From: Vulcanimicrobiota bacterium
GTDB taxonomy: Bacteria > Vulcanimicrobiota > Vulcanimicrobiia > Eremiobacterales > Eremiobacteraceae
Assembly: GCA_963805945.1 (NCBI GenBank)
Contig: CAWDVP010000007.1
Location: forward strand, 1-32,704
Length of the DNA: 32,704 nt
Direction: 5' to 3'
The translations under genes and the position numbers were made by a program. Below are positions 3,106 through 16,439 of the stretch, piece after piece (the first letter of the stretch is position 1; the number at the start of each line of letters is the position of its first letter). Under the pieces are notes generated by a model. The model was given only the letters and a program-made list of their open reading frames with translations. It ran no database searches and was not told the origin of the DNA.

Positions 3106-4041
3106 ATGAGCACGACCGTCAGCGGAAACGCGCCGCTCGTCGGAGCACCGCGTGCCGGCAAGCGCGCCTTGTTGCTCCTCAACCAAGACGCGCGTCAGGT
3201 CGACGAGCACGGTCTCGATGTGACGGCGCGCTTGCGCGACTCCGGGTTCACGGTCGTGCAGCCGGCGCTCAGCGACAGGGCATCGGTCGCGACGGCGATC
3301 CGCGAAAATGCTTCTACGACCGATCTCGTCATCGCCGGCGGCGGCGACGGCACGCTCAACGCAGTGCTTCAGGCACTCGTCGGGACCGGATTGCCGCTCG
3401 GCATCATCCCCTTGGGCACCGCGAACGATCTGGCGAAGACCCTAGGGCTGCCCTCGGATCCAAAGGCCGCGTGCGACGTGATCGCGCATGGGGAGTTGCG
3501 CCGCATCGATGCCGGCTGCGTGAACGGCACGTACTTCTTCAACGAGACCAGCATCGGCATGAGCCCGACGGTCTCCCGCGCGCTGTCCAAGGACGCGAAG
3601 GCCGCGCTGGGCGTGTTCGCCATCCTCGAAAAAGCCATTCGCATCATGGCACGCATGCGGCGCTTCACCGCACTGGTGCGATGTGACGGCGAAGAACACG
3701 TCCTGCGCACGGCGCAGCTCACCGTCGGCAATAGCAAGAACTTCGGCGGCTTCGTCGGCAGCGACGACGCCGAGATCGACGATCGCCGGCTGGACCTGTA
3801 CAGCGTCGCGTTCAGGCATTGGTGGTCGTACTTCGAGGTGCTCGTATCGCTCATCCGCCGCCGCTACGATGACGCCGGCTCGGTGTTCACCTTGCACGGA
3901 CGCATGTTCGAGGTCAGCACGCACAAGCCCAAGGCGATCGAGGCCGACGGCGAGATCGTCTCGATGACTCCCGCGCGCATCTGGATCGTGCCGCGCGCCG
4001 TTTCGGTCTTCGTGCCTCCCACAGAACGCCGGACCGCATGA
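3106..4041 (+). CDS. YegS/DgkB/BmrU-family lipid (diacylglycerol) kinase
   Basis: GGGDGTLN, IPLGTANDLA and ADGE motifs. Confidence 0.92.
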   Translation: MSTTVSGNAPLVGAPRAGKRALLLLNQDARQVDEHGLDVTARLRDSGFTVVQPALSDRASVATAIRENASTTDLVIAGGGDGTLNAVLQALVGTGLPLGIIPLGTANDLAKTLGLPSDPKAACDVIAHGELRRIDAGCVNGTYFFNETSIGMSPTVSRALSKDAKAALGVFAILEKAIRIMARMRRFTALVRCDGEEHVLRTAQLTVGNSKNFGGFVGSDDAEIDDRRLDLYSVAFRHWWSYFEVLVSLIRRRYDDAGSVFTLHGRMFEVSTHKPKAIEADGEIVSMTPARIWIVPRAVSVFVPPTERRTA

Positions 4042-4568
4042 GGTTCGGCAATCCTCGCCGAGCTCTGCGACCGCTGCAGTGGGTCGATCGCGTGACCTCT
4101 ATTTCGCTCGACGAGTTGAAATCGGACGGAATTCGTGCGATCATCATCGACTTGGACAACACATTGGTGGGCTATGACCGCGTCGAGCCCGAGCCGGGGG
4201 TCGCCGAATGGGTGCGTCGCGCTCAGACGAGCGGTTTCGCGATCGCGATCGTGTCGAATAACGTGCGCGCCTGGGTCAGCAGCATCGCGACGCAGCTCGG
4301 AATCGTCACCTACGTGCATACCGCTCTCAAGCCGCTGCCGTTCGGCTTGTTCAAGGCCGTACGGCAGCTGCGCGTCGCCCGATCGGCGACGGTCGTGGTC
4401 GGCGACCAGCTCTTCGCCGACGTGCTGGCCGCCAAACTGCTCGGGATCCGCGCGATCCTGACAGACCCGATCGAGGCGCACGAGCACCGCGCCATGTGGC
4501 TGGTCCGGCTGCTCGAGCGCTTCATGCTGCTCGGCACACCCCGCCGCACCCCCACGCCCATCGACTAG
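4038..4568 (+). CDS. yqeG: YqeG-family HAD-IIIA phosphatase
   Basis: DLDNTL, VSNN, KP and VVGDQLFADV motifs; ATGA overlap with the kinase. Confidence 0.9.
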   Translation: MRFGNPRRALRPLQWVDRVTSISLDELKSDGIRAIIIDLDNTLVGYDRVEPEPGVAEWVRRAQTSGFAIAIVSNNVRAWVSSIATQLGIVTYVHTALKPLPFGLFKAVRQLRVARSATVVVGDQLFADVLAAKLLGIRAILTDPIEAHEHRAMWLVRLLERFMLLGTPRRTPTPID

Positions 4569-4613: not shown

Positions 4614-5471
4614 ATGAAGCCGAAACCGCTTATGGTCTGGCCCAATGCCAAACAGCGCATGCGCGACTTCGACCCCGGCGACACGTGGGGTTGCAAAGAC
4701 AAGCGCGAGGCGCAGGACAAATTGGCGCAGGACGTCGAGGCGCTGCGCGAGCTGCAAAACGTGTTGAGCGCGCAGGCGGAACATGCCGTGCTCATCATCT
4801 TCCAGGGCATGGACACGGCGGGCAAGGACAGCGCCATCAAGCACGTCATCTCGGGGGTCAATCCCCAGGGCGTCCACGTCTACAGCTTCAAAGCGCCTTC
4901 AGAAGAAGAGAAGCGCCACGACTATCTGTGGCGCGCGCAAAAAGTGATGCCGGAACGCGGCCGGATCGGCATCTTCAATCGTTCGTATTACGAGGACGTC
5001 CTCATCACGCGCGTGCACCCGGACCTGCTCGGCCCGCGCCTCGCACGGCATGCGGACAAGGAGTTCTGGAAACGCCGCTTCCGCGACATCAACGACTACG
5101 AACGCTACCTTGCCGACAACGGCACGTCGATCATCAAATTCTTCCTCAATATCTCGAAGAAAGAGCAGCGCAAGCGGCTGCTCGAGCGGCTCGACAAGCC
5201 GGACAAGCAGTGGAAGTTCTCGATCGGCGATCTGCAGCAGCGGGGCTTCTGGGACGAGTATATGAAAGCGTACGAGGCCATGGTGCATGAGACCAGCACC
5301 GCGCACGCGCCCTGGTATGTCATCCCGGCAGACCATAAGTGGTTCGCACACCTGGCCGTCGCCGACATCCTCGTGAAGCGGCTGCGCGCGCTGAAGATGT
5401 CCTACCCGAAACTGCCGCCGAGCCTGCGCGACGCGCTGCGCGAGCAGAAGCGCAAGCTTCTCAAAGGATAA
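4614..5471 (+). CDS. ppk2: Polyphosphate kinase 2 family (class III-like)
   Basis: QGMDTAGKD Walker A, IFNRSYYEDVL, APWYVIPADHKW. Confidence 0.92.
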   Translation: MKPKPLMVWPNAKQRMRDFDPGDTWGCKDKREAQDKLAQDVEALRELQNVLSAQAEHAVLIIFQGMDTAGKDSAIKHVISGVNPQGVHVYSFKAPSEEEKRHDYLWRAQKVMPERGRIGIFNRSYYEDVLITRVHPDLLGPRLARHADKEFWKRRFRDINDYERYLADNGTSIIKFFLNISKKEQRKRLLERLDKPDKQWKFSIGDLQQRGFWDEYMKAYEAMVHETSTAHAPWYVIPADHKWFAHLAVADILVKRLRALKMSYPKLPPSLRDALREQKRKLLKG

Positions 5472-5479
5472 CAAACTCG

Positions 5480-7234
5480 ATGCGCCCCGTGCCAACGCGC
5501 GATACGGCGCGGACGATCATCGCCGCCGGCGCAACCGCTGCGGTGGTCATACTGCTGGCGATCCAAGGCTGGTCGCTGCCGCACGAGGGCAGTCCGAACG
5601 CCGCCGCGTCGAGCGACGGCGCGTGCGCCGTCCGCATCACGGAGTCGTCGGGCGCGTTGGCCGCGGCCGGGCTGCGTGTCGGGGACGACGTCGATCTGCG
5701 CGCGGCAGAGCCGCTGACGCGATTGTTCTTCATCGACGCTTCGCCGATCGCGGACGAGCCGCTCTCACTGCCCGTGGTGCGGCCTGCAGGTTTGGCGACG
5801 GTCCGTGCCGTCGGCGCGGACGCTGTGCCGGTGCGCGGCTGGGTCACCGGCTTCATCGTGAAGATCGTCATCTTCTTGCTGGGGCTGCTCGTGCTGTGGC
5901 GCGGCCGCGATCGCGCGTCGCTGTTCTTCGGCATCTCGAGCCTCGCGATCTGCGCCGCGATGTATCCCGCGCCCGCCTTCCTGCCGTCGCTCGGCGGCCG
6001 CGTCGCGCTCGTGGTCGCGGTCGCGCTGCTCGCCGAGGTCGCCGCGTTTTTCTTCTATCTCATGCTCGAGCAGTTCGCGCGCGGCAACGTCTCGGAACGG
6101 CTGCTCGCGGTGACCCGCATCGTGGTCGTCGCCGCCGTGGCGGTTTTGATCGCAGACGATTTCATCTTCCCCATCGGGCGCGTCGCGACCGGCTGCATCA
6201 GCGTTCCGCTGCACGCGGTCCATCTGCCCGCCTACATGGCCGTGCTTGTCGCGTCGCTCGTCGTGCTGGCGACAGCGTTCATCGGCTCGCGGGGCGAGCA
6301 GCGCCAACGTCTGCGCTGGATCTTCTGGTCCACCGCGGTCGGGTTCTCCGGCGTGTTCATCTATATCGCCGGCCAGTTCGCCGGCTGGCACATCCCGGTC
6401 TATCCGCTCACGAACATCACCGCGGTCGCCATCCCCATCGGCTACTCGTACGCGATCCTGCGCCACCGCGTCATCGACGTCAATTTCGTGCTCAATCGAG
6501 CGCTCGTGTTCGCGGCCTCGACGACCGTCGTGTTCGGCGTCTTCGCGCTGCTCGGCAGCTATATCGAAAAGGCGGCGGTGGGCGAGCGCACGAGCCTCAT
6601 CTTGCAGGTGGCGGTCGCGCTCGGCGTGGCGTTCTCGTTCAAATGGCTCCAGGACCGCTTCGACACGATCGTCGACCGGCTGTTCTTCCGTCAACGCTAT
6701 GCGGCTGAGGCCGCGATCCGCCAGACGATCGAAGAAGTGTCCTTCGTGCGCGACGGCGCGACGCTGCTCGCGCGCGTCGCCGCCGCGCCGGTCGAGCAGC
6801 TGCACGCGCGCGGCGCCGCCATCTATCTCGACGGCGACGGCTCGTACCGCCTCGCCGCCGCCGCGGGTGAGTGGTCGAGCGTCAAGACGGTCGACGCGGA
6901 CGACCCGGCGTTCGTGCGCCTGCGCGCCACGCTGCATGAGGTGGAGCTCGACGACGTGCCGTCGGCGCTCGGGCGGGGCGTGGCGCTGCCGATGGGGCTG
7001 CAGGGCCAACTCTCAGGCGCCCTGGTATGCGCGCCGCGCGCGTCGGACGAGCGCTACGACCCGGACGAAGTGGAGATCTTGCGGTCGCTCGCGCATCAGC
7101 TCGCGCTCTCGCTGACCGCGCTCGACGCGCGCGAGTCGCTGCTGCTCATGCGGGCGCTGGCGGATGGCACGGTGACGCCGCCGGAGGCGCTCGAAAGAGC
7201 GCGTTCGTTAAGCACCAGGGAATGGAGGACGTGA
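5480..7234 (+). CDS. Polytopic membrane protein with PDZ-like loop and C-terminal GAF-like domain, no output domain
   Basis: AAAGLRVGD (PDZ-like); about 8-9 TM helices; YAILRHRVIDV and VDRLFFR linkers; ALPMGLQGQLSGALVC...YDPDEVEILRSLAHQLA (GAF-like). Confidence 0.7.
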   Translation: MRPVPTRDTARTIIAAGATAAVVILLAIQGWSLPHEGSPNAAASSDGACAVRITESSGALAAAGLRVGDDVDLRAAEPLTRLFFIDASPIADEPLSLPVVRPAGLATVRAVGADAVPVRGWVTGFIVKIVIFLLGLLVLWRGRDRASLFFGISSLAICAAMYPAPAFLPSLGGRVALVVAVALLAEVAAFFFYLMLEQFARGNVSERLLAVTRIVVVAAVAVLIADDFIFPIGRVATGCISVPLHAVHLPAYMAVLVASLVVLATAFIGSRGEQRQRLRWIFWSTAVGFSGVFIYIAGQFAGWHIPVYPLTNITAVAIPIGYSYAILRHRVIDVNFVLNRALVFAASTTVVFGVFALLGSYIEKAAVGERTSLILQVAVALGVAFSFKWLQDRFDTIVDRLFFRQRYAAEAAIRQTIEEVSFVRDGATLLARVAAAPVEQLHARGAAIYLDGDGSYRLAAAAGEWSSVKTVDADDPAFVRLRATLHEVELDDVPSALGRGVALPMGLQGQLSGALVCAPRASDERYDPDEVEILRSLAHQLALSLTALDARESLLLMRALADGTVTPPEALERARSLSTREWRT

Positions 7235-7239
7235 CCGCT

Positions 7240-8763
7240 ATGGCCCTCGCGGTGAACGACTACACGGTGCTGAAGAGCGTGCGCGCGGTCTGCCCGCGTT
7301 GCTTTGCGGAGACACCCGACTTCGATCCGGAGTGGCCGGACGATATCGCGGACGGCCATCTGGTCCGTCGCGGCGATAGCGTGTATGTGCGCCGGATGTG
7401 CCGCCGCGGACACGGCGAGGTGTGGTCGCTCTACGAAGAGGACTACGCGCTGTGGGACTACCTGCAGCAGTGGCGCGTGCCGACGAAGGTCATCAATCCG
7501 GACACGCGCGAACTGTTCCCCGCGCCCACGGGCTACGAGCACGGCCTCGGGCCGGGCCATCTGCAGCACACCTGCATCTTCTTGCTCGACATCACGTCGC
7601 AGTGCAACTTGTCGTGCCCCGCCTGCTATGCCGGCTCGAGTCCCCAGCAGACGCAGTACGTGCCGCTCGACGGCATCAAGCATGCGGTGGAGACGGCGAT
7701 CGCGCGCGAGGGCGGCCACCTCGACGTCGTCATGATCAGCGGCGGCGAGCCGACGGTGCATCCGCAGATCGTGGAGATCCTGCGCGCCATCGCGGCGCTG
7801 CCGGTGACGCGCGTGCTGCTCAACACGAACGGCATCCGCCTCGCCTCCGACGACGGGCTGCTCGCCTTCTTGGCGGAGCACCGCGACCGCATCGAGGTGT
7901 ATCTGCAGTACGACGGCCAGCGCGAAGACACGCAGCGCTATCTGCGCGGCCAGGACCTGCGGCCGATCAAAGAACGCGTGCTCGAACGCCTCTCGGCGCA
8001 CGAGGTGTTCGCGACGCTCGTCATGGTGGTGAGCGAGCAGAACGCCGATCTCATCGGCGCGGTTCTCCACACCGCGTTCGCCACGCCGTACGTGGGCGGC
8101 GTGATGTTCCAGCCGGTGTTCGCCTCGGGCCGCGCGCCCGGCATCGACGGCATGCGGCGGGTGACGACGACGGGCGTGCTGCGCCGCATCGAGACGCAGA
8201 CCGCCGGCCGGGTGAAGGCCCGGGACCTCATCGCGCTGCCTTGCAGCCATCCCGATTGCTGCTCGATCGGCTATTTCCTCAAGGACAAGCACGGCGCTTT
8301 CCACGGGCTCGCGCGCGTGCTCGGCCACGACGTGCTGCGGGCCAATCTCGGCGTCATCGGCAACAGCATCACGTTCTCCGATACGCTGGCGAGCGTGCGC
8401 GACGCGCTCGCCGGCCTCATGTCCGAATCCATGACCTTGTCGCGGCCCGAACTGGTGGGGCATCTGGCGACGCTGTGCAGCAGCTGCGACTTCGGCGGTC
8501 TCACGCAGTTGATCGCCGCGGCGTTCCGCAAAGGCGCATCCCATGAGTTCGTCGGCGCCCGGGTGAAACGCGTGACCATCAAGCATTTCATGGATGCGGA
8601 CACGCTCATCGCCGAGCGGCTCGAGCAGTGCTGCGTCCATGTGGGCAGCGCGGGCAACGACCCGGTGCGCATGCCGTTCTGCGCGGCGCGGCTCTTTCCA
8701 AAAGTGCGGGCGAAGGCGCTCGAAGGCTCGACGACTCGCGCGGCCGTAGCGCCGCACACCTGA
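7240..8763 (+). CDS. Radical SAM enzyme of the Tes/GDGT-MAS (MJ0619, COG1964)-like family
   Basis: CNLSCPAC (CX3CX2C), SGGEPTVHP, LNTNG. N-terminal CPRC...CRRGHG metal site. C-terminal KHFMD...ERLEQCCVH...PFCA. Alternative start GTG 7231. Confidence 0.85.
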   Translation: MALAVNDYTVLKSVRAVCPRCFAETPDFDPEWPDDIADGHLVRRGDSVYVRRMCRRGHGEVWSLYEEDYALWDYLQQWRVPTKVINPDTRELFPAPTGYEHGLGPGHLQHTCIFLLDITSQCNLSCPACYAGSSPQQTQYVPLDGIKHAVETAIAREGGHLDVVMISGGEPTVHPQIVEILRAIAALPVTRVLLNTNGIRLASDDGLLAFLAEHRDRIEVYLQYDGQREDTQRYLRGQDLRPIKERVLERLSAHEVFATLVMVVSEQNADLIGAVLHTAFATPYVGGVMFQPVFASGRAPGIDGMRRVTTTGVLRRIETQTAGRVKARDLIALPCSHPDCCSIGYFLKDKHGAFHGLARVLGHDVLRANLGVIGNSITFSDTLASVRDALAGLMSESMTLSRPELVGHLATLCSSCDFGGLTQLIAAAFRKGASHEFVGARVKRVTIKHFMDADTLIAERLEQCCVHVGSAGNDPVRMPFCAARLFPKVRAKALEGSTTRAAVAPHT

Positions 8764-8764
8764 T

Positions 8765-8790
8765 GTAGGGGCCGATCTTTAGATCGGCCC
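8765..8790 (+). repeat. GTAG-type REP, family A
   Basis: GTAG-GGGCCGATCT-TT-AGATCGGCCC hairpin; related copies at 23142-23205 and 27425-27490. Confidence 0.8.
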
Positions 8791-8792
8791 GT

Positions 8793-8816
8793 GGAGCGGT
8801 CGAATTCATTCGACCG
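8793..8816 (+). repeat. REP, family B
   Basis: GGAG-CGGTCGAAT-TC-ATTCGACCG; related copies at 9388, 29370 and 31114. Confidence 0.75.
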
Positions 8817-8826
8817 GAACGAGACG

Positions 8827-9102
8827 ATGACCGACACCGAAAGCGTTCTCCCCACCCCGCGCCAACAACGCGGCGAAGAGATCGAAGGCCTGGCGTTCAC
8901 GTTCTGCAAGGCCGCCGCCCTCGCGCTCATCTTCCAGAAGTACACGCTGCTCGCCACGGCGGGCATCGCGACAGTGCTTTACCTCTATGCGGCGTCGTTG
9001 GGCGTGCGCGAATGGCGCTGCTTCGTGAAGCCGCCCTGGGTCGTCATCATCATGGCGGGTCTCACCGCGTTCCAAGTCTACTGGCTCTTCCTGCGGACCT
9101 AA
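8827..9102 (+). CDS. Small membrane protein with two Cys (91 aa)
   Basis: ATG 8827 after the REP pair; hydrophobic helices; FTFCK and WRCF. Confidence 0.75.
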   Translation: MTDTESVLPTPRQQRGEEIEGLAFTFCKAAALALIFQKYTLLATAGIATVLYLYAASLGVREWRCFVKPPWVVIIMAGLTAFQVYWLFLRT

Positions 9103-9105
9103 GCC

Positions 9106-9354
9106 ATGGAAGCGGAGCCGACGAAGCCCTGCCGCACGTGCGGCACCCCGGTCGAGCCCAACGCCGCGTTCTGCCCGCAGTGCGGTGAGCACATGCCGGG
9201 GTATCCGGCGAGCGAAGTGCAGGCGCGCCACAAGCGCGATATGCGCAGCCTCTCTATCGCGCTTGCGGCGTTCCTCGGCTGCGGACTCATCGTGCTCACC
9301 GCGGTCGTGCTAGGCGCGCTCGCGGTGTGCAACGGCTTGACGCACAACCTGTAG
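9106..9354 (+). CDS. Zinc-ribbon membrane protein with C-terminal LGALAVC motif (82 aa)
   Basis: CRTCG-x9-FCPQCG ribbon, one long TM helix, starts 3 nt after the upstream stop. Confidence 0.8.
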   Translation: MEAEPTKPCRTCGTPVEPNAAFCPQCGEHMPGYPASEVQARHKRDMRSLSIALAAFLGCGLIVLTAVVLGALAVCNGLTHNL

Positions 9355-9387
9355 GGCAGTGCGCGGTGGCGGCCGAACGAATCATAT

Positions 9388-9411
9388 ATAGCGGTCGAGC
9401 TTGCTCGACCG
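9388..9411 (+). repeat. REP, family B variant
   Basis: ATAG-CGGTCGAGC-TT-GCTCGACCG; compensatory stem changes relative to other copies. Confidence 0.7.
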
Positions 9412-9448
9412 TGCCCGAGCGCAGCTCGGAGAAGCGTCGGAGCGCAGC

Positions 9449-10141
9449 ATGATCGTGTCAGCGGTGTTCTACGGTCTTGGCTACCTCGCAGGTTTGGCGG
9501 CGTTCGCGCTCATGGCGCGCAAACGCGGGATCGCGACCTCCGGTATTTGGACGCTCATGAGCGCAGGCCTCATCGGCGGTCTCGCCGGCGCGAACATCAC
9601 GCAGCTCCTCGTCACCGGTTCGCCGGGCAAGACCCTGCTCGGCGGCATCATCTTCGGCTACCTCGCGGTCATCATCGCGAAGCGCACGCTTGGCATCACC
9701 CGGCCCACCGGCGACCTGTTCGCGATGGCGCTCGCCGCCGGCGAAGCCGTCGGCCGCTGGGGCTGCTTCTTCGGTTTGTGCTGCTACGGCAAGCTCGCGG
9801 CGAACCTGCCATGGGCGGTCTACGAGCACGGCGCGTATCGCCACCCGACACAAGCCTATCTCGCACTGGCCGCGACAGGCGTCTTCTGCATCCTGTGGCA
9901 GCTGCAGAAGAAACCGCTGCCGGAAAACGCGCTGTTCTACGCCCAAGGGATGCTGTTCTGCGCCGCGCGCTTCGGCATCGAGTTCTTCCGCGAGGCGCCG
10001 GCGATTCTCGGCGGATTCACGCTGGCGCAGCTGGCGTGCACGGCCGGCTTCGTGTTCTTCGCATATAAGATGTACGGACTGCTCGCCGAGAAGGAGCGCG
10101 TGCCATCGCTGACACTTGCGCCAACTGCGGCCACGAGCTAG
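9449..10141 (+). CDS. Divergent prolipoprotein diacylglyceryl transferase (Lgt)-family protein
   Basis: FYGLGY, GKTLLGG, GRWGCFFGLCCYG, LPWAV, RHPTQAY, RFGIEFFRE; GGAG SD before ATG 9449. Confidence 0.85.
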   Translation: MIVSAVFYGLGYLAGLAAFALMARKRGIATSGIWTLMSAGLIGGLAGANITQLLVTGSPGKTLLGGIIFGYLAVIIAKRTLGITRPTGDLFAMALAAGEAVGRWGCFFGLCCYGKLAANLPWAVYEHGAYRHPTQAYLALAATGVFCILWQLQKKPLPENALFYAQGMLFCAARFGIEFFREAPAILGGFTLAQLACTAGFVFFAYKMYGLLAEKERVPSLTLAPTAATS

Positions 10142-10497
10142 CCGCCGGGGCGCTCGTCTGCCCGAACTGCGGCGCCGCCATCCCGACCAAGCCTGGGGAA
10201 GAAGGCGCGGGGACGGTGGTCGCCGGCGCGGTGGGCGGTCTCGCGGTGGGCTGCTTCGTCGGCTTTCTCGTCGGGTTCTCTTTGGTGGCCATCGCCTACT
10301 CGCTCACCTCGCATCTCCTCATGGCGCACAGCAGGCAGCTCGTATCGATAGGCACCGATATCGTCGTGGTGCTGCTCGCCGTTTGGGCTCTCATGGCCGT
10401 CAGAACCAAGCCGCATCGGTATTTCTTGGCGGCCGCGATTATCACGACGACCGTGGTGGCGCTCGGCGCCTTTTCGGTCTGCGGGCCTCAGAACTAA
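10105..10497 (+). CDS. Zinc-ribbon three-TM membrane protein with C-terminal LGAFSVC motif (130 aa), probable ATC start
   Basis: The frame of ORF 10216..10497 extends upstream to encode CANCGHELAAGALVCPNCG. AAGGAG lies 8 nt before in-frame ATC 10105. In-frame stop at 10066-10068. Confidence 0.7.
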   Translation: MADTCANCGHELAAGALVCPNCGAAIPTKPGEEGAGTVVAGAVGGLAVGCFVGFLVGFSLVAIAYSLTSHLLMAHSRQLVSIGTDIVVVLLAVWALMAVRTKPHRYFLAAAIITTTVVALGAFSVCGPQN

Positions 10498-10510: not shown

Positions 10511-11554
10511 ATGATCCTGCATGGCGACCTCGACGCGTTCTACGCGGCCGTCGCGCAACGCGATGACCCCGCCCTCCGCGGCAAGCCGCTCGTCGTCGCT
10601 GGGCGGAGCCGGCGCGCGGTCGTGCTCACCGCGTCATATGAAGCGCGGCCGTTCGGCATCCGCAGCGCGATGCCGCTGTACCGCGCGCTCCAGAGCTGCC
10701 CCGATCTCATCGTGGTGCCGCCCTCGTTCGACAGCTACCGCGAGGCGAGCCGAGCCGTCTTCGCGATCTTGCGGAGCAGCGCGGCCACGGTCGAAGGGCT
10801 TTCGATGGACGAAGCGTTCTGCGATCTCGGAGAGGTCGCGCTGCCCGCTGCGCTCGCGCTCGGGCGGAAGATCAAAGATGACGTGCGCGCCGCAACAGGC
10901 TTGACGATGTCGATCGGCATCGCGAGCGGCAAGATCGTGGCGAAGATCGCGAGCGACGACGGGAAACCCGATGGGCTGGTCGGGGTACCCCCTGGCACCG
11001 AGGCCGCGTACCTCGCGTCGAAACCGATCGGCCGGCTGTGGGGGATCGGCCCGAAGACCGAAGCGCGGCTGAACGCGCGGGGCATCGAGCGCATCGAGCA
11101 GATCGCCGCGCTCGATGACGGCGCCGTGCACGCGCTGTTCGGGCGCTGGGGCAAGGACGTGCGCGAGATGGCGCGCGGCGTCGATCACCGCAGGGTGAGC
11201 GAGGGCGATGGCGTGCGATCGATCTCGAGCGAAGAGACGTTCGAACACGACGTCGCCAGCATCGACGAGCTGCTTCGCATCGTCCGGGTCCAAGCCGACG
11301 AGATCGCCGAGCGTCTCAAGAGGAAACAGCTGTGCGCGTATACGGTCGGCGTCAAGGTGAAGCTCTCGGATTTCTCGCTCGTCGGGCGCCAGACGTCGCT
11401 CGCACAGCCCACCGACGACGCGCGGATCATCAACGCCGCCGCTGCCTTTTGCCTGCGCCGCGCGGATCCGCCCAAACCGGTGCGGCTAATCGGGGTGCGG
11501 GTCGCGTCGCTCGTGCAACGGGAAGCGCGCCAAATCGGGTTGTTCGGATCTTAG
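10511..11554 (+). CDS. dinB: DNA polymerase IV (Y family)
   Basis: HGDLDAFYAAV, ASYEARPFGIRSAMP, SMDEAF, KIASDDGKPDG, LWGIG. Confidence 0.93.
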   Translation: MILHGDLDAFYAAVAQRDDPALRGKPLVVAGRSRRAVVLTASYEARPFGIRSAMPLYRALQSCPDLIVVPPSFDSYREASRAVFAILRSSAATVEGLSMDEAFCDLGEVALPAALALGRKIKDDVRAATGLTMSIGIASGKIVAKIASDDGKPDGLVGVPPGTEAAYLASKPIGRLWGIGPKTEARLNARGIERIEQIAALDDGAVHALFGRWGKDVREMARGVDHRRVSEGDGVRSISSEETFEHDVASIDELLRIVRVQADEIAERLKRKQLCAYTVGVKVKLSDFSLVGRQTSLAQPTDDARIINAAAAFCLRRADPPKPVRLIGVRVASLVQREARQIGLFGS

Positions 11555-13896: not shown

Positions 13897-14874
13897 ATGC
13901 CGGCCGACAGGCTCCCGGTCATCAAGCAGCCGATGCTGCCCACGCTCACCGACACGCCGTTCGACGACGACGAATGGCTGTTCGAGCTCAAGTGGGATGG
14001 CATCCGCGCGATCTGCACCATCCGCGGCAAGGGCGAATGCGAGCTCGTCTCGCGCAACGGTCTCTCGCTCAACAAGAAATTCCCCGAGCTCGACGGCGTC
14101 GAAAAAGAATTCGCGCGAGCGCCGCTCATCGTCGACGGCGAGATCGTGAGCCTCGACACACGAGGGCGCTCGTCGTTCCAACGGCTGCAGCGACGCTTCA
14201 AACCGAAGCCCGGCGCCAAGCCGATTGAGACAGGCACGATCGTCTTCGCCGTCTTCGATCTGCTCTACGACGGCCGATCAGATCTGCGGCGCCGCCCGCT
14301 CGAAGAGCGGAAGGCCGCGCTCGAAAAAGCCATACGATCGGGCGTGAAGCGCGTCATCGTGTCCAAGCACGTGGTCGGCACGGGGAAGAAGCTCTTCGCC
14401 TTGGCGCGGGCGCAATCGCTCGAGGGCATCGTCGCCAAGCGGCGCGACTCCACGTATCAAGAGCGGCGCTCGCGCGATTGGCTCAAGATCAAGACGCACC
14501 TCGAGCAAGAATTCGTGGTCGGCGGCTGGACCGACCCGCAGGGCAGCCGCAAGGGGTTCGGCGCGCTGCTGGTCGGGGTATACGAACGCGGTAAGCTCGT
14601 GTTCTGCGGCGGCGTCGGCAGCGGCTTCGACGGCGAACTGCTGAAATCGATCTCCGCGAAGCTCAAACCCCTGGCGACGCGGACCTGCCCGTTCGATGCG
14701 CCGCCGCCCACCGCGATCGAGAAGACAAGCCATTGGGTGAAGCCGAAGCTGGTCGCCGAAGTGAAATTCGGCGAGTGGACCGCCGAGGGGCTGCTGCGCC
14801 AGCCGGTCTTCCTCGGTCTGCGCACCGACAAAGATCCCAAAGATATCGTCCATGAGAGGCCGGTCGAGCGATGA
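13897..14874 (+). CDS. ligD: LigD-type ATP-dependent DNA ligase (stand-alone ligase domain)
   Basis: ELKWDGIR, DGEIV, FDLL, EGIVAKR, WLKIK, LRQPVFLGLRTDK. Confidence 0.9.
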   Translation: MPADRLPVIKQPMLPTLTDTPFDDDEWLFELKWDGIRAICTIRGKGECELVSRNGLSLNKKFPELDGVEKEFARAPLIVDGEIVSLDTRGRSSFQRLQRRFKPKPGAKPIETGTIVFAVFDLLYDGRSDLRRRPLEERKAALEKAIRSGVKRVIVSKHVVGTGKKLFALARAQSLEGIVAKRRDSTYQERRSRDWLKIKTHLEQEFVVGGWTDPQGSRKGFGALLVGVYERGKLVFCGGVGSGFDGELLKSISAKLKPLATRTCPFDAPPPTAIEKTSHWVKPKLVAEVKFGEWTAEGLLRQPVFLGLRTDKDPKDIVHERPVER

Positions 14875-16439
14875 AGGGCTCATTGCGCGAGTACAAGCGC
14901 AAGCGCGATTTCAAACAGACGAGCGAACCCGCGGGCACGGTGAAGCGCAGCGGCACGCAGCGCTTCGTCGTGCAGAAGCATCGCGCGTCGCACCTCCACT
15001 ACGATTTTCGGCTCGAGGCGGGCGGCGTGCTCAAGTCGTGGGCGGTGCCGAAAGGGCCGTCGCTCGACCCGGCGGACAAGCGGCTCGCGATGCAGGTCGA
15101 AGACCATCCGCTTGATTACTTCAGCTTCGAAGGGGTGATCCCGCACGGCAATTACGGCGCGGGCGACGTGATCGTATGGGACTACGGCACGTACACGCTC
15201 TTCGAGGGGACGAACCCGGCGGCCGAGATAGGCGCGGGCAAGATCAAGTTCATCCTCCACGGCAAGAAGCTCAAGGGCGAGTTCACGCTGGTGAAGATGC
15301 GCGGGCGAAATTCGAGCGACAACGCGTGGCTGCTCGTCAAAGACAAGGATCGTTATGTCGCCCCGACGTGGGATGCCGAAGATCACGCGCGCTCGGCGAA
15401 GACCGGCCGCACCCTCGATGAAGTGTCGGCCGATCCGCGCTCGAAGAAATGGATCAGTAATCGCAGCGCCGCCGCAAAGAAGCCGTCCGCGGCGCGCTCG
15501 AAGCCGGCCGCCGCCCCAGGCCTGCCGACGCTGACCAACCTCGATAAAGTGCTGTGGCCCAACGACGGCTACACCAAAGGCGAGCTGATCAAGTACTATC
15601 TGACGGTCGCGCCGTGGCTGCTGCCGTATCTGAAGGATCGCCCGCTGTCGTTGCAGCGTTTTCCCAACGGGATCACCGGCGAATCGTTCTTCGAAAAGCA
15701 GCTCCCCAAGGGCGCGCCTGACTGGGTGCGGACTCATGCGATCCCGACGGACACCGGCAAGCGCGCGAAGATCGACTATGTCGTGTGCGACGACGAGCGC
15801 ACGCTGGCGTGGCTCGCGAACCTCGCGGCGATCACCATCCACGCGTGGCTGTCGCGGGTGGGCTCGCTCGGCTCGCCGGATTATAGCCTCTTCGACCTCG
15901 ATCCGCAAGCTGGCTGCACCTTGGCCACGCTCGCCAAAGTCGCGCTGCTGTTGCGCGACGAGCTGGAGTCGCTCGGCATGACGCCGGCGGTGAAGACGTC
16001 CGGCGGCAAGGGCCTGCACGTCATGATGCGGCTCGCGCCAGGTTATGACTATTCAGAGGTGCGCCGTTTTTCAGAACTGATCGCGCGCCGCCTCGAGGCC
16101 GAGCACGGCGAGGACATCACGCTCGAGCGCATGGTGAAGAAGCGGCCGCGCGGCACCGTCTATCTCGATTGGGTGCAGGTCGGCGAAGGCAAGACCATCG
16201 TCATGCCGTTCATCGTGCGGCCGCGGCCGAAGGCGCCGGTGTCGTGGCCGTTGGCATGGTCCGACGTCGAGCGCATGGCCCGTTCGCGCGCACCGGATCT
16301 GTTGGGCGAAGCCGCGCGTTTCAACATCACCACCGCGCCGGCGCTGCTGAAGAAGAAGGGCGACGCCTGGAGCGCGCCCATGAAGAAGCAGCAACGGCTC
16401 GAGCCGGCGCTCAAGAAAGCGCAGAAGCTCTGGACGTGA
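14871..16439 (+). CDS. ligD: LigD 3'-phosphoesterase plus primase-like polymerase fusion, lacking the ligase domain
   Basis: PE: FVVQKHRASHLHYDFRLE, SWAVPKGPS. POL: LTNLDKVLWP, FDLDP, KTSGGKGLHV. ATGA overlap with the ligase gene. Confidence 0.9.
   Translation: MKGSLREYKRKRDFKQTSEPAGTVKRSGTQRFVVQKHRASHLHYDFRLEAGGVLKSWAVPKGPSLDPADKRLAMQVEDHPLDYFSFEGVIPHGNYGAGDVIVWDYGTYTLFEGTNPAAEIGAGKIKFILHGKKLKGEFTLVKMRGRNSSDNAWLLVKDKDRYVAPTWDAEDHARSAKTGRTLDEVSADPRSKKWISNRSAAAKKPSAARSKPAAAPGLPTLTNLDKVLWPNDGYTKGELIKYYLTVAPWLLPYLKDRPLSLQRFPNGITGESFFEKQLPKGAPDWVRTHAIPTDTGKRAKIDYVVCDDERTLAWLANLAAITIHAWLSRVGSLGSPDYSLFDLDPQAGCTLATLAKVALLLRDELESLGMTPAVKTSGGKGLHVMMRLAPGYDYSEVRRFSELIARRLEAEHGEDITLERMVKKRPRGTVYLDWVQVGEGKTIVMPFIVRPRPKAPVSWPLAWSDVERMARSRAPDLLGEAARFNITTAPALLKKKGDAWSAPMKKQQRLEPALKKAQKLWT

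Follow-up and report, generated by a model that had tools for sequence, protein, structure and literature searches.

A conserved membrane cassette in Eremiobacterota and Armatimonadota links an Lgt-fold enzyme to small proteins ending in a Leu-Gly-x4-Cys tag

In the usual view, Lgt is one housekeeping enzyme that serves a single, loosely defined substrate motif. Can an enzyme of this type also be encoded together with substrates of its own? The question is raised by a locus in a Vulcanimicrobiota bacterium (Eremiobacteraceae; assembly GCA_963805945.1, contig CAWDVP010000007.1, forward strand 1-32,704), where an Lgt-like gene lies between the genes of two small zinc-ribbon proteins, ZnA and ZnB. 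We refer to the whole stretch of DNA analysed, 32,704 nucleotides (nt) long, as the window. We found that it holds a conserved four-part membrane cassette, made up of an enzyme with the Lgt fold, a radical S-adenosylmethionine (SAM) enzyme related to the tetraether synthase Tes and to TrsS, a 103-residue membrane protein that we call small103, and at least one putative client protein. The arrangement suggests an undescribed protein-lipidation system. The cassette region, 7027-10497, is a single, tightly packed row of plus-strand genes on a contig of 66% G+C, and the nearest relatives of the Lgt-like protein are annotated from Candidatus Eremiobacteraeota. Its features are as follows.

7240-8763, plus strand: radical SAM enzyme related to Tes and TrsS (PF04055, 5.3e-17), in a frame open from 7027
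8791-9102, plus strand: small103, a 103-residue membrane protein with two near-invariant cysteines, matching no Pfam or NCBIfam family
9106-9354, plus strand: ZnA, an 82-residue zinc-ribbon protein with one transmembrane helix and an ATG start (Zn_Ribbon_1)
9310-9330, plus strand: tag of ZnA, L69-G-A-L-A-V-C75 (motif statistics)
9449-10141, plus strand: Lgt-fold membrane enzyme of 230 residues with the signature GRWGCFFGLCCYGK (PF01790, 79 bits; AlphaFold2 and Foldseek)
10105-10497, plus strand: ZnB, a 130-residue zinc-ribbon protein with three helices and a putative ATC start (Zn_Ribbon_1, AlphaFold2, orthologs)
10462-10482, plus strand: tag of ZnB, L120-G-A-F-S-V-C126 (22 orthologs)

ZnA ends in TAVVLGALAVC-NGLTHNL, with Cys75 encoded at 9328-9330, and ZnB ends in TTVVALGAFSVC-GPQN (LGAFSVC-GPQN), with Cys126 encoded at 10480-10482 and the stop codon at 10495-10497. 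The coordinates and C-terminal sequences given in the original prediction, which drew attention to these two proteins, were exact on re-reading, as was its remark that a basic patch precedes the last helix in both (RHKRDMR in ZnA, RTKPHR in ZnB). Its ribbon spacing of CxxCG-x10-CPxCG was off by one; the real pattern is CxxC-x10-CxxC, or CxxCG-x9-CPxCG. Both proteins match Pfam Zn_Ribbon_1 (29.9 and 30.7 bits, cut-off 25), and pairwise BLASTP of their C-terminal segments gave 10 identities in 21 positions (E = 8e-4).

Is this resemblance more than chance? We aligned 29 Lgt-like homologs (alignment A1) and used the alignment to retrieve 80 related loci from GTDB species genomes, belonging to Eremiobacterota/Vulcanimicrobiota and to Armatimonadota (Capsulimonadaceae, Chthonomonadaceae, Fimbriimonas and Abditibacteriaceae). 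The loci are labelled L001-L080 and the window WIN, and the 81 sources were split by identity of the Lgt-like protein into clade I (at least 48%; n = 69, the window and 68 loci) and clade II (45% or less; n = 12). An open reading frame (ORF) was counted as tagged if it encoded a Cys no more than 25 residues from the C-terminus after a hydrophobic run; a stricter count also required [LFM]G at positions -6/-5 from this Cys. On the strand of the Lgt-like gene, 90 of the 164 ribbon ORFs were tagged, 74 of them with [LFM]G. Among ORFs that lack a ribbon, the tag was counted in 125 of 4,896 on the Lgt strand (10 with [LFM]G) and in 93 of 5,441 on the opposite strand (none with [LFM]G), and none of the 14 ribbon ORFs on the opposite strand had it. 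Within clade I, 90 ORFs near the Lgt-like gene encode a ribbon plus transmembrane helices, and 77 of them have the Cys behind a hydrophobic run, at a distance of 2-15 residues (median 9) from the C-terminus. The 69 unique tag sequences have L at -6 in 60 cases, G at -5 in 64, [LF] at -3 in 55, A or S at -2 in 42 and L, I or V at -1 in 47, which gives the consensus [LF]-G-x-[LF]-[AS]-[LIV]-C, followed by a short uncharged tail. The LGA[LF][AS]VC ending shared by ZnA and ZnB, as first noticed, is thus conserved far above chance in the comparative counts over the 81 sources; at the level of sequence, the Leu-Gly-x4-Cys tag is more than a chance resemblance and recurs beside the Lgt-like enzyme in both Eremiobacterota and Armatimonadota, two phyla of soil bacteria.

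The same residues stand out in alignments and database relatives. Alignments A2 (71 proteins) and A4 (22 Eremiobacterota ZnB orthologs) were built from ORFs preselected for a C-terminal Cys, and their only invariant columns are the four ribbon cysteines and the terminal Cys, with Gly(-5) in addition in A4. Numbered as in the window protein, the 22 ZnB orthologs keep G121 and C126 without exception and L120 at 90% or more, and all 15 database relatives of ZnA keep [LF]G-x4-C. A profile search with A2 over 1.84 billion representatives returned 52,712 matches at E <= 1e-3 and 1,489 at E <= 1e-10. Among the best 150 of these matches, 91 were long multi-ribbon proteins aligned at the ribbon only and 59 were proteins of at most 230 residues; 58 of these 59 short matches keep the Cys pattern at their end and 50 have G at -5, so that the terminal Cys is indeed conserved among orthologs, as the original prediction demanded of itself. 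A 17-column hidden Markov model (HMM) of the tag matched 53 of 10,515 ORFs; every match was on the Lgt strand, and 50 had a ribbon. This model is specific, and because of its low sensitivity we preferred the explicit sequence criteria. Lookups of ZnB and small103 in the ESM Atlas returned only unnamed or generic zinc-ribbon clusters.

The tag proteins are also tied to the enzyme by position. At least one ORF with both ribbon and tag was found in 56 of the 69 clade I loci, always on the Lgt strand, and in 46 of these 56 the ribbon begins between -100 and +250 nt from the end of the Lgt-like gene. The link to this particular Lgt clade that had been proposed is therefore tight, mostly in the form of a gene directly downstream. 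Gene order varies (one order in the window and L001-L003, convergent genes in L004 and L005, others in most Armatimonadota and in clade II) and the linkage is retained throughout. Where at least 3 kb was available on both sides of the Lgt-like gene, the radical SAM gene was found in 50 of 56 loci and small103 in 48 of 56; small103 always occurs with the radical SAM gene. Four loci (L008, L022, L046 and L074) have the Lgt-like gene and tag proteins with no radical SAM gene nearby, and each 10-kb locus contains one Lgt-family ORF only, in all 81 sources.

The cassette genes differ sharply in how fast they change. Between the window and L001-L003, identity is 74-76% for the Lgt-like protein, 76-78% for the radical SAM enzyme and 79-81% for small103, and it is only 34-39% for ZnA and 32-34% for ZnB. 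The number of tag proteins per locus ranges from 0 to 9. Judged from such comparisons, fast divergence and variable copy number appear to be the pattern of substrates, not of fixed subunits. The proposal that ZnA and ZnB are dedicated substrates of the putative Lgt paralog holds up as conserved synteny, and at the level of gene linkage only.

What kind of enzyme is it? The Lgt-like ORF opens at TTG 9401, and the 230 residues are counted from ATG 9449. Residues 23-220 match Pfam PF01790 with 79.0 bits against a gathering threshold of 24.9, which places the protein in the Pfam Lgt family. An AlphaFold2 model (predicted local distance difference test, pLDDT, 87.8; predicted template modelling score, pTM, 0.82) has seven long helices and the Lgt fold, and in a Foldseek search of the PDB the sole match at E <= 0.001 was 5AZB, E. 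coli Lgt (E = 2.5e-7, TM-score 0.75). Compared with E. coli Lgt (5AZB/5AZC), the protein keeps the equivalents of R143, R239, Y26, E243 and G154 as its invariant R103, R174, Y8, E178 and G114, and a profile alignment to 5AZB indicates that the RHPxQxY stretch is kept as well. The Lgt signature GRLGNFINGELWG is changed to GRWGCFFG(G/L)CCYG. In the window, the stretch G142RLGNFINGELWG154 of the E. coli enzyme reads GRWGCFFGLCCYG, with N146 replaced by Cys, N149 by Gly and E151 by Cys, and Cys stands at both the N146 and the E151 position in all 81 sources. HGGL becomes LGGI, with H103 aligned to Leu in GKTLLGGI, and the periplasmic head domain is almost gone. Five cysteines are invariant (C106, C111, C112, C171 and C197), three of which replace residues of the catalytic signature.

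These differences can be read against the functional work on E. coli Lgt. In the accessible parts of Mao et al. 2016 (PMC4728403), R143 and R239 form an Arg pair that is essential for transfer and binds phospholipid, the mutants of R143, Y26, E151 (E151A/Q) and H103 are inactive, and HGGL is proposed as the binding site of the lipobox peptide. As the Arg pair is kept while N146, E151 and H103 are changed, the phospholipid side of the active site seems to be preserved, and the acceptor side, with part of the polar network, to be rebuilt with Cys. The H103 difference weighs little, since available sections of a 2026 paper report this residue missing from the Lgt of Firmicutes and Actinobacteria (PMC13251419).

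Clade II enzymes carry the signature GRIGCFFNGCCYG and have Gly at the position of clade I Cys171. Their ribbon proteins (L065-L067, L069, L071, L072 and L075-L080) often carry their Cys as part of the motif P-x-[GA]-x-x-G-[AST]-C, located at the first helix; a second helix and then a basic tail follow. The enzyme signature and the Cys of the ribbon proteins covary in clade II, but as one event, and so this is weak evidence.

Where would the tag Cys lie in the membrane? K plus R amount to 0.18 per residue in the 15 residues ahead of the last helix and to 0.06 in the tail; the value ahead of the helix is higher than that of the tail in 66 of 73 proteins, equal in 3 and lower in 4. An AlphaFold2 model of ZnB (pLDDT 79) places helices at 35-71, 77-99 and 105-125, with Cys126 immediately after the last. 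We infer that the ribbon is cytoplasmic and that ZnA, with one helix, and ZnB, with three, would both place the Cys at the outer face of the membrane in an N-in/C-out arrangement. In the membrane, the client Cys would then be as deep as the active site of Lgt.

This predicted placement is that of a lipobox Cys, which likewise stands at the outer end of an N-in/C-out helix, right after the hydrophobic region and with basic residues ahead of it. The positions -3 and -2 of the lipobox, as given in the accessible text of PMC4728403, fit [LF](-3) and A/S(-2) of the tag. The tag departs from the lipobox rule [LVI][ASTVI][GAS]C at -1, where 47 of the 69 sequences have L, I or V (LAVC and FSVC in the window), and it adds G(-5) and L(-6). 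A bulky residue at -1 disfavours signal peptidase II. The tag is also C-terminal, coming after a zinc ribbon and one to three helices, and usually only 2-15 residues follow it; there is no short N-terminal signal peptide with a mature domain behind it, as 74 residues precede the Cys in ZnA and 125 in ZnB, and 7 and 4 follow, respectively. The exceptions are L002 and L003, where about 300 residues follow. Ordinary lipoprotein-type signals, AIGLISGC-A(S/G)N, were seen on the minus strand at L028:302-3 and L034:287-3, and thus canonical lipoboxes with a small -1 residue do occur in Eremiobacterota.

The tag is not confined to zinc-ribbon proteins. Seven loci (L017, L018, L024, L028, L034, L041 and L047; Cybelea-type) encode, inside the cassette, proteins of about 100 residues with three transmembrane helices and the same tag but no ribbon. 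Six of the seven end in LG(V/L/S)TALC-Nx(L/I)xGGLG(S/N)MH, and that of L047 ends in LGGATIC-GALIGIGS. The ribbon had been proposed as a leader or recognition module, and these seven loci contradict the idea that it is needed. In L002 and L003, two separate metagenome-assembled genomes, the ZnB ortholog runs past GLGGLTLC-SG into an extension of about 300 residues, which contains an alpha/beta-hydrolase domain (PF12697, 1.6e-14 and 4.7e-12); after the Cys comes a Ser/Gly/Ala/Pro-rich stretch and then the domain, a lipoprotein-like order. The G-x-S-x-G elbow reads GHGFGG in both, and the nucleophile Ser therefore seems to be missing. A search for longer fused forms of ZnB gave 6 matches, all to the ribbon only, and did not recover the known L002/L003 fusion either. 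The ORFs concerned are as follows.

L017:2814-3134: tag ORF without a ribbon
L018:4869-5192: tag ORF without a ribbon
L024:6101-6457: tag ORF without a ribbon
L034:6098-6454: tag ORF without a ribbon
L002:5663-6973: ZnB-hydrolase fusion
L003:3386-4669: ZnB-hydrolase fusion

Tails after the Cys are 2-15 residues long and are conserved within subfamilies only, with those of the ZnB type as short as 2-4 residues. ZnA-type tails commonly read C-[SNG]-x-[LI], and 11 of 15 ZnA relatives have a C-terminal His 7-11 residues after the Cys. The terminal His is also found in the ribbon-less proteins; it is absent from ZnB-type tails and from ZnA of the window, which ends in HNL.

We hypothesize, tentatively, that the Lgt-fold enzyme transfers a lipid and that the Cys of the tag accepts it. 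We favour this lipid-acceptor reading because the enzymes of the locus are conserved, their multi-copy neighbours evolve fast and have only a short tag in common, and the tag Cys is predicted to lie at the depth of the active site; such a combination is typically seen where an enzyme and its dedicated substrates are encoded side by side. The Lgt-like enzyme would bind phospholipid through the retained Arg pair and attach its lipid moiety to the tag Cys at the thiol, just as Lgt modifies the Cys of the lipobox, and the remodelled acceptor site, with N146, E151 and H103 replaced, would admit the bulky -1 residue. The client would probably stay uncut by signal peptidase II and remain a lipid-modified membrane protein, and the radical SAM enzyme with small103 might then act on the lipid tails or on the same conjugate. 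It is doubtful, though conceivable, that the sequence of events goes further, with a lipid placed on the client Cys and the Tes-like radical SAM enzyme then coupling its tails to lipids of the inner leaflet. If true, this would tether a membrane-spanning lipid covalently to a protein with a cytoplasmic ribbon, a new lipid-protein conjugate.

Several observations weigh against the lipid-acceptor reading. The enzyme scores 47.6 bits with TIGR00544, below the cut-off of 118.9 for the Lgt equivalog, and does not retain E151, H103 or N146, so its activity may differ from diacylglyceryl transfer; other Lgt equivalog models give 18-34 bits against cut-offs of 334-636. Both the enzyme and small103 are unusually rich in Cys, and this would suit chemistry on thiols or metals just as well. 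In four loci whose 5-kb flanks are complete (L010, L021, L045 and L053), the Lgt-like gene, the radical SAM gene and small103 are present but no tag ORF is, so that clients are sometimes encoded elsewhere or sometimes dispensable. Among the 90 clade I ribbon ORFs, 13 lack the tag, 10 having another pattern and 3 no Cys. The Cys positions differ in clade II, where some G-x4-C motifs lie near a basic, presumably cytoplasmic, tail and where we found no single rule across the 12 loci. The invariance of the terminal Cys in A2 and A4 arises by construction, from the selection of ORFs, while the conservation of Gly(-5) and Leu(-6) does not. Finally, the proposed topology draws on the positive-inside rule and a structure model, and the Armatimonadota forms would require a short re-entrant hairpin to bring the Cys to the outer face.

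How do other explanations compare? Instead of being lipidated, the tag Cys might take part in a disulfide bond, a metal site or a thiol relay that involves the Lgt-like cavity and small103, the cavity being Cys-rich and facing the periplasm and the small proteins being subunits, or redox or metal clients, of a membrane complex. This is possible, though we would not expect it. The five invariant cysteines of the Lgt-like protein and the two near-invariant ones of small103 would suit such chemistry, and the terminal His of 11 of the 15 ZnA relatives and of the ribbon-less proteins could make a Cys/His ligand pair. However, that His is missing from ZnB-type tails and from the window's own ZnA, a copy number of 0-9 and quick divergence are unlike fixed subunits, and since the phospholipid-binding Arg pair is retained, a lipid substrate is still to be expected. 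An unlikely explanation is a pathway confined to lipids, in which the Lgt-like and radical SAM enzymes convert those of the membrane, for instance into membrane-spanning ones, the zinc-ribbon proteins being co-transcribed regulators or scaffolds and the tag a helix-packing motif. A G-x4 spacing is a common packing pattern in helices, and the four loci with enzymes and no tag ORF would be in keeping with this explanation. Packing does not explain, however, why a Cys stands at a fixed distance from the Gly, at the end of the helix and ahead of a free tail, nor why the tag appears on ribbon-less proteins and in front of a 300-residue domain, and pairs of Lgt-like gene and tag persist without a radical SAM gene nearby. 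The placing of the radical SAM enzyme in the Tes/TrsS group does speak for lipid remodelling, since bacterial Tes homologs have been proposed, in the available text of PMC8941075 and PMC13459092, as makers of membrane-spanning lipids.

The original prediction went beyond lipidation and had the chain cut before the Cys, with release of the short lipopeptides C-NGLTHNL and C-GPQN and the ribbon part acting as a leader. The semi-conserved ZnA-type tails, 11 of 15 of them ending in His, and the tandem client genes, which recall precursor arrays, would be in keeping with this. Cleavage before the Cys is nevertheless disfavoured because residue -1 is bulky and the cassette has no conserved peptidase (a CPBP protease gene near the window's cassette has counterparts in 0 of 80 loci), because ZnB-type tails vary between subfamilies and shrink to 2-4 residues, and because domains of about 300 residues follow the Cys in L002 and L003; we judge the full model very unlikely. 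It is slightly less likely still that the gene encodes an ordinary housekeeping Lgt with incidental neighbours and that the shared ending merely mirrors the composition of transmembrane helices. The source genomes do annotate the gene simply as Lgt, and L, G, A and V are common in such helices, but the [LFM]G form of the tag occurs in 74 of the 164 ribbon ORFs and in only 10 of the 10,337 others, G(-5) and the Cys are conserved across two phyla, the linkage to the radical SAM gene and small103 is conserved, and the catalytic signature is altered.

Among known systems, the Lgt pathway differs from the cassette in that the cassette enzyme gene is linked to putative clients and a radical SAM gene. 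The MYXO-CTERM/MrtX system offers the nearest likeness in its accessible description (PMC11980579), with a C-terminal tag, an invariant Cys adjoining a transmembrane helix and dedicated targets, and there the Cys is proposed to be lipidated by an 'Lgt-like' enzyme that was not identified. The order of parts is opposite, however. In MYXO-CTERM the Cys comes before the helix, the helix runs from out to in and an Arg-rich cytoplasmic tail follows (PMC11980579, same sections), whereas the cassette tag has helix, Cys and then an uncharged tail, with the opposite orientation, and so falls outside MYXO-CTERM. MYXO-CTERM is moreover described, in the same accessible text, on large secreted proteins with N-terminal signal peptides, which ZnA and ZnB lack, and the CPBP protease that defines the myxosortase system there has a gene in the window but in none of the 80 related loci. 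The radical SAM enzyme is a relative of the Tes and Mss enzymes, which couple lipid tails according to the sections available, though it scores below both cut-offs; it is always paired with small103 and usually also with an Lgt-fold enzyme. The accessible part of the Tes paper (PMC8941075) mentions no such partners, a 2026 review (PMC13459092) contains neither 'lipoprotein' nor 'Lgt', and the one place where we found TrsS was a table in a review on selenoproteins (PMC13188914). In open-access papers and bioRxiv we found none on this cassette, on a linkage of an Lgt-fold with a Tes-like radical SAM gene, or on such a C-terminal tag.

If the lipid-acceptor reading is true, the cassette would be the first dedicated system of an Lgt-type enzyme and its substrates, formed by a separate clade of the Lgt fold with a rebuilt active site, and would come with a defined C-terminal Cys tag, [LF]-G-x4-C; it would also be a concrete parallel to the 'Lgt-like' step postulated for myxosortase targets. 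The cassette further gives a protein context to bacterial Tes homologs, the candidate makers of membrane-spanning lipids in soil bacteria. The system is small, with four or five genes and clients of 80-130 residues, and is therefore directly testable.

Is ZnB itself a real gene? It had been described as a 130-residue protein; the ending is right, but the start, at 10105, is ATC, and no canonical start precedes the ribbon. Within this frame, open from 10069 onward, the first ATG, GTG or TTG is a GTG at 10216, downstream of the ribbon. The ATC sits 8 nt past AAGGAG, a Shine-Dalgarno site, and an ATC lies 3-4 codons upstream of the first ribbon Cys in all five sources of the subclade (the window and L001-L004), with the context GCC-ATC in the window, L002, L003 and L004 and ACC-ATC in L001. 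In L001-L004 it falls in the final 25-37 nt of the Lgt-like gene, the overlap in the window being 37 nt. More distant loci have ATG or GTG at the equivalent position. We thus regard ZnB as a real gene whose start is probably ATC. In the window (10090-10141) and L001-L004, the offset from the first ribbon Cys to the end of the Lgt stop codon is -25 nt; with N-C-G of the ribbon overlapping the 3' end of the Lgt-like gene, the T-A-A-x-S at the C-terminus of the Lgt-like protein is the alternate reading frame of the ribbon.

The radical SAM gene likely starts at ATG 7240, after GGAGGA, or else at ATG 7222, and its stop is at 8763. Its product reaches 212.8 bits with the NCBIfam TrsS model (cut-off 490) and 175.3 bits with Tes (cut-off 450), and across five cassettes the values are 210-243 bits for TrsS and 171-212 bits for Tes, so that it lies below both equivalog cut-offs. 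It has a weak match to an HMPTM-type N-terminal zinc ribbon (18 bits, cut-off 27). A selenocysteine considered for the L006 enzyme was rejected, because the real start comes only after the in-frame stop. In small103, an alignment of 49 sequences has C39 of AFTFCK in all 49 and C77 of REWRC in 48.

We also considered other genes as cassette members. A CPBP/Rce1-like protease (PF02517; 12540-13382, minus strand) lies 2 kb away and was found by tblastn and phmmer in 0 of 80 loci, and a GAF protein and DinB are absent from all 80. No further conserved gene lies between the radical SAM gene and small103, the gap genes being unrelated. Genes found between cassette genes encode an SDH-type protease, APH, GNAT, M28 and AAA proteins, and no conserved peptidase is among them. 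Two features of the window that lie within or next to the cassette region are as follows.

9392-9411, no strand: perfect 20-nt palindrome, CGGTCGAGC-TT-GCTCGACCG, in the 94 nt that separate ZnA from the Lgt-like gene
10511-11554: DinB, not a member of the cassette

The palindrome could be a hairpin or a protein-binding site.

Some loci have features of their own. Downstream of the Lgt-like gene, L046:5687-9472, L066:3992-7097 and L069:5669-8663 contain tandem arrays of zinc-ribbon membrane genes, with as many as nine or ten members; the nine genes of the L046 array all have the C-terminal tag, and this locus has no radical SAM gene close by. The Lgt-like gene of L074 (L074:4977-5674) is broken into two ORFs that overlap, through a frameshift or an assembly error. 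L079 (CAWHLK010000061.1) is a bacterial-type cassette under the label 'uncultured archaeon', which may be a binning error. Upstream of the cassette in the window, 3106-4568 and 5339-7234 encode a diacylglycerol-kinase-like lipid kinase, a HAD phosphatase with a PGP-phosphatase match and a GAF-domain protein with multiple transmembrane segments. Downstream, at 13897-16439, two adjacent LigD-type genes (an ATP-dependent ligase, followed by a phosphoesterase plus primase-polymerase) lie near DinB, and together these form a small DNA-repair neighbourhood that is unrelated to the cassette.

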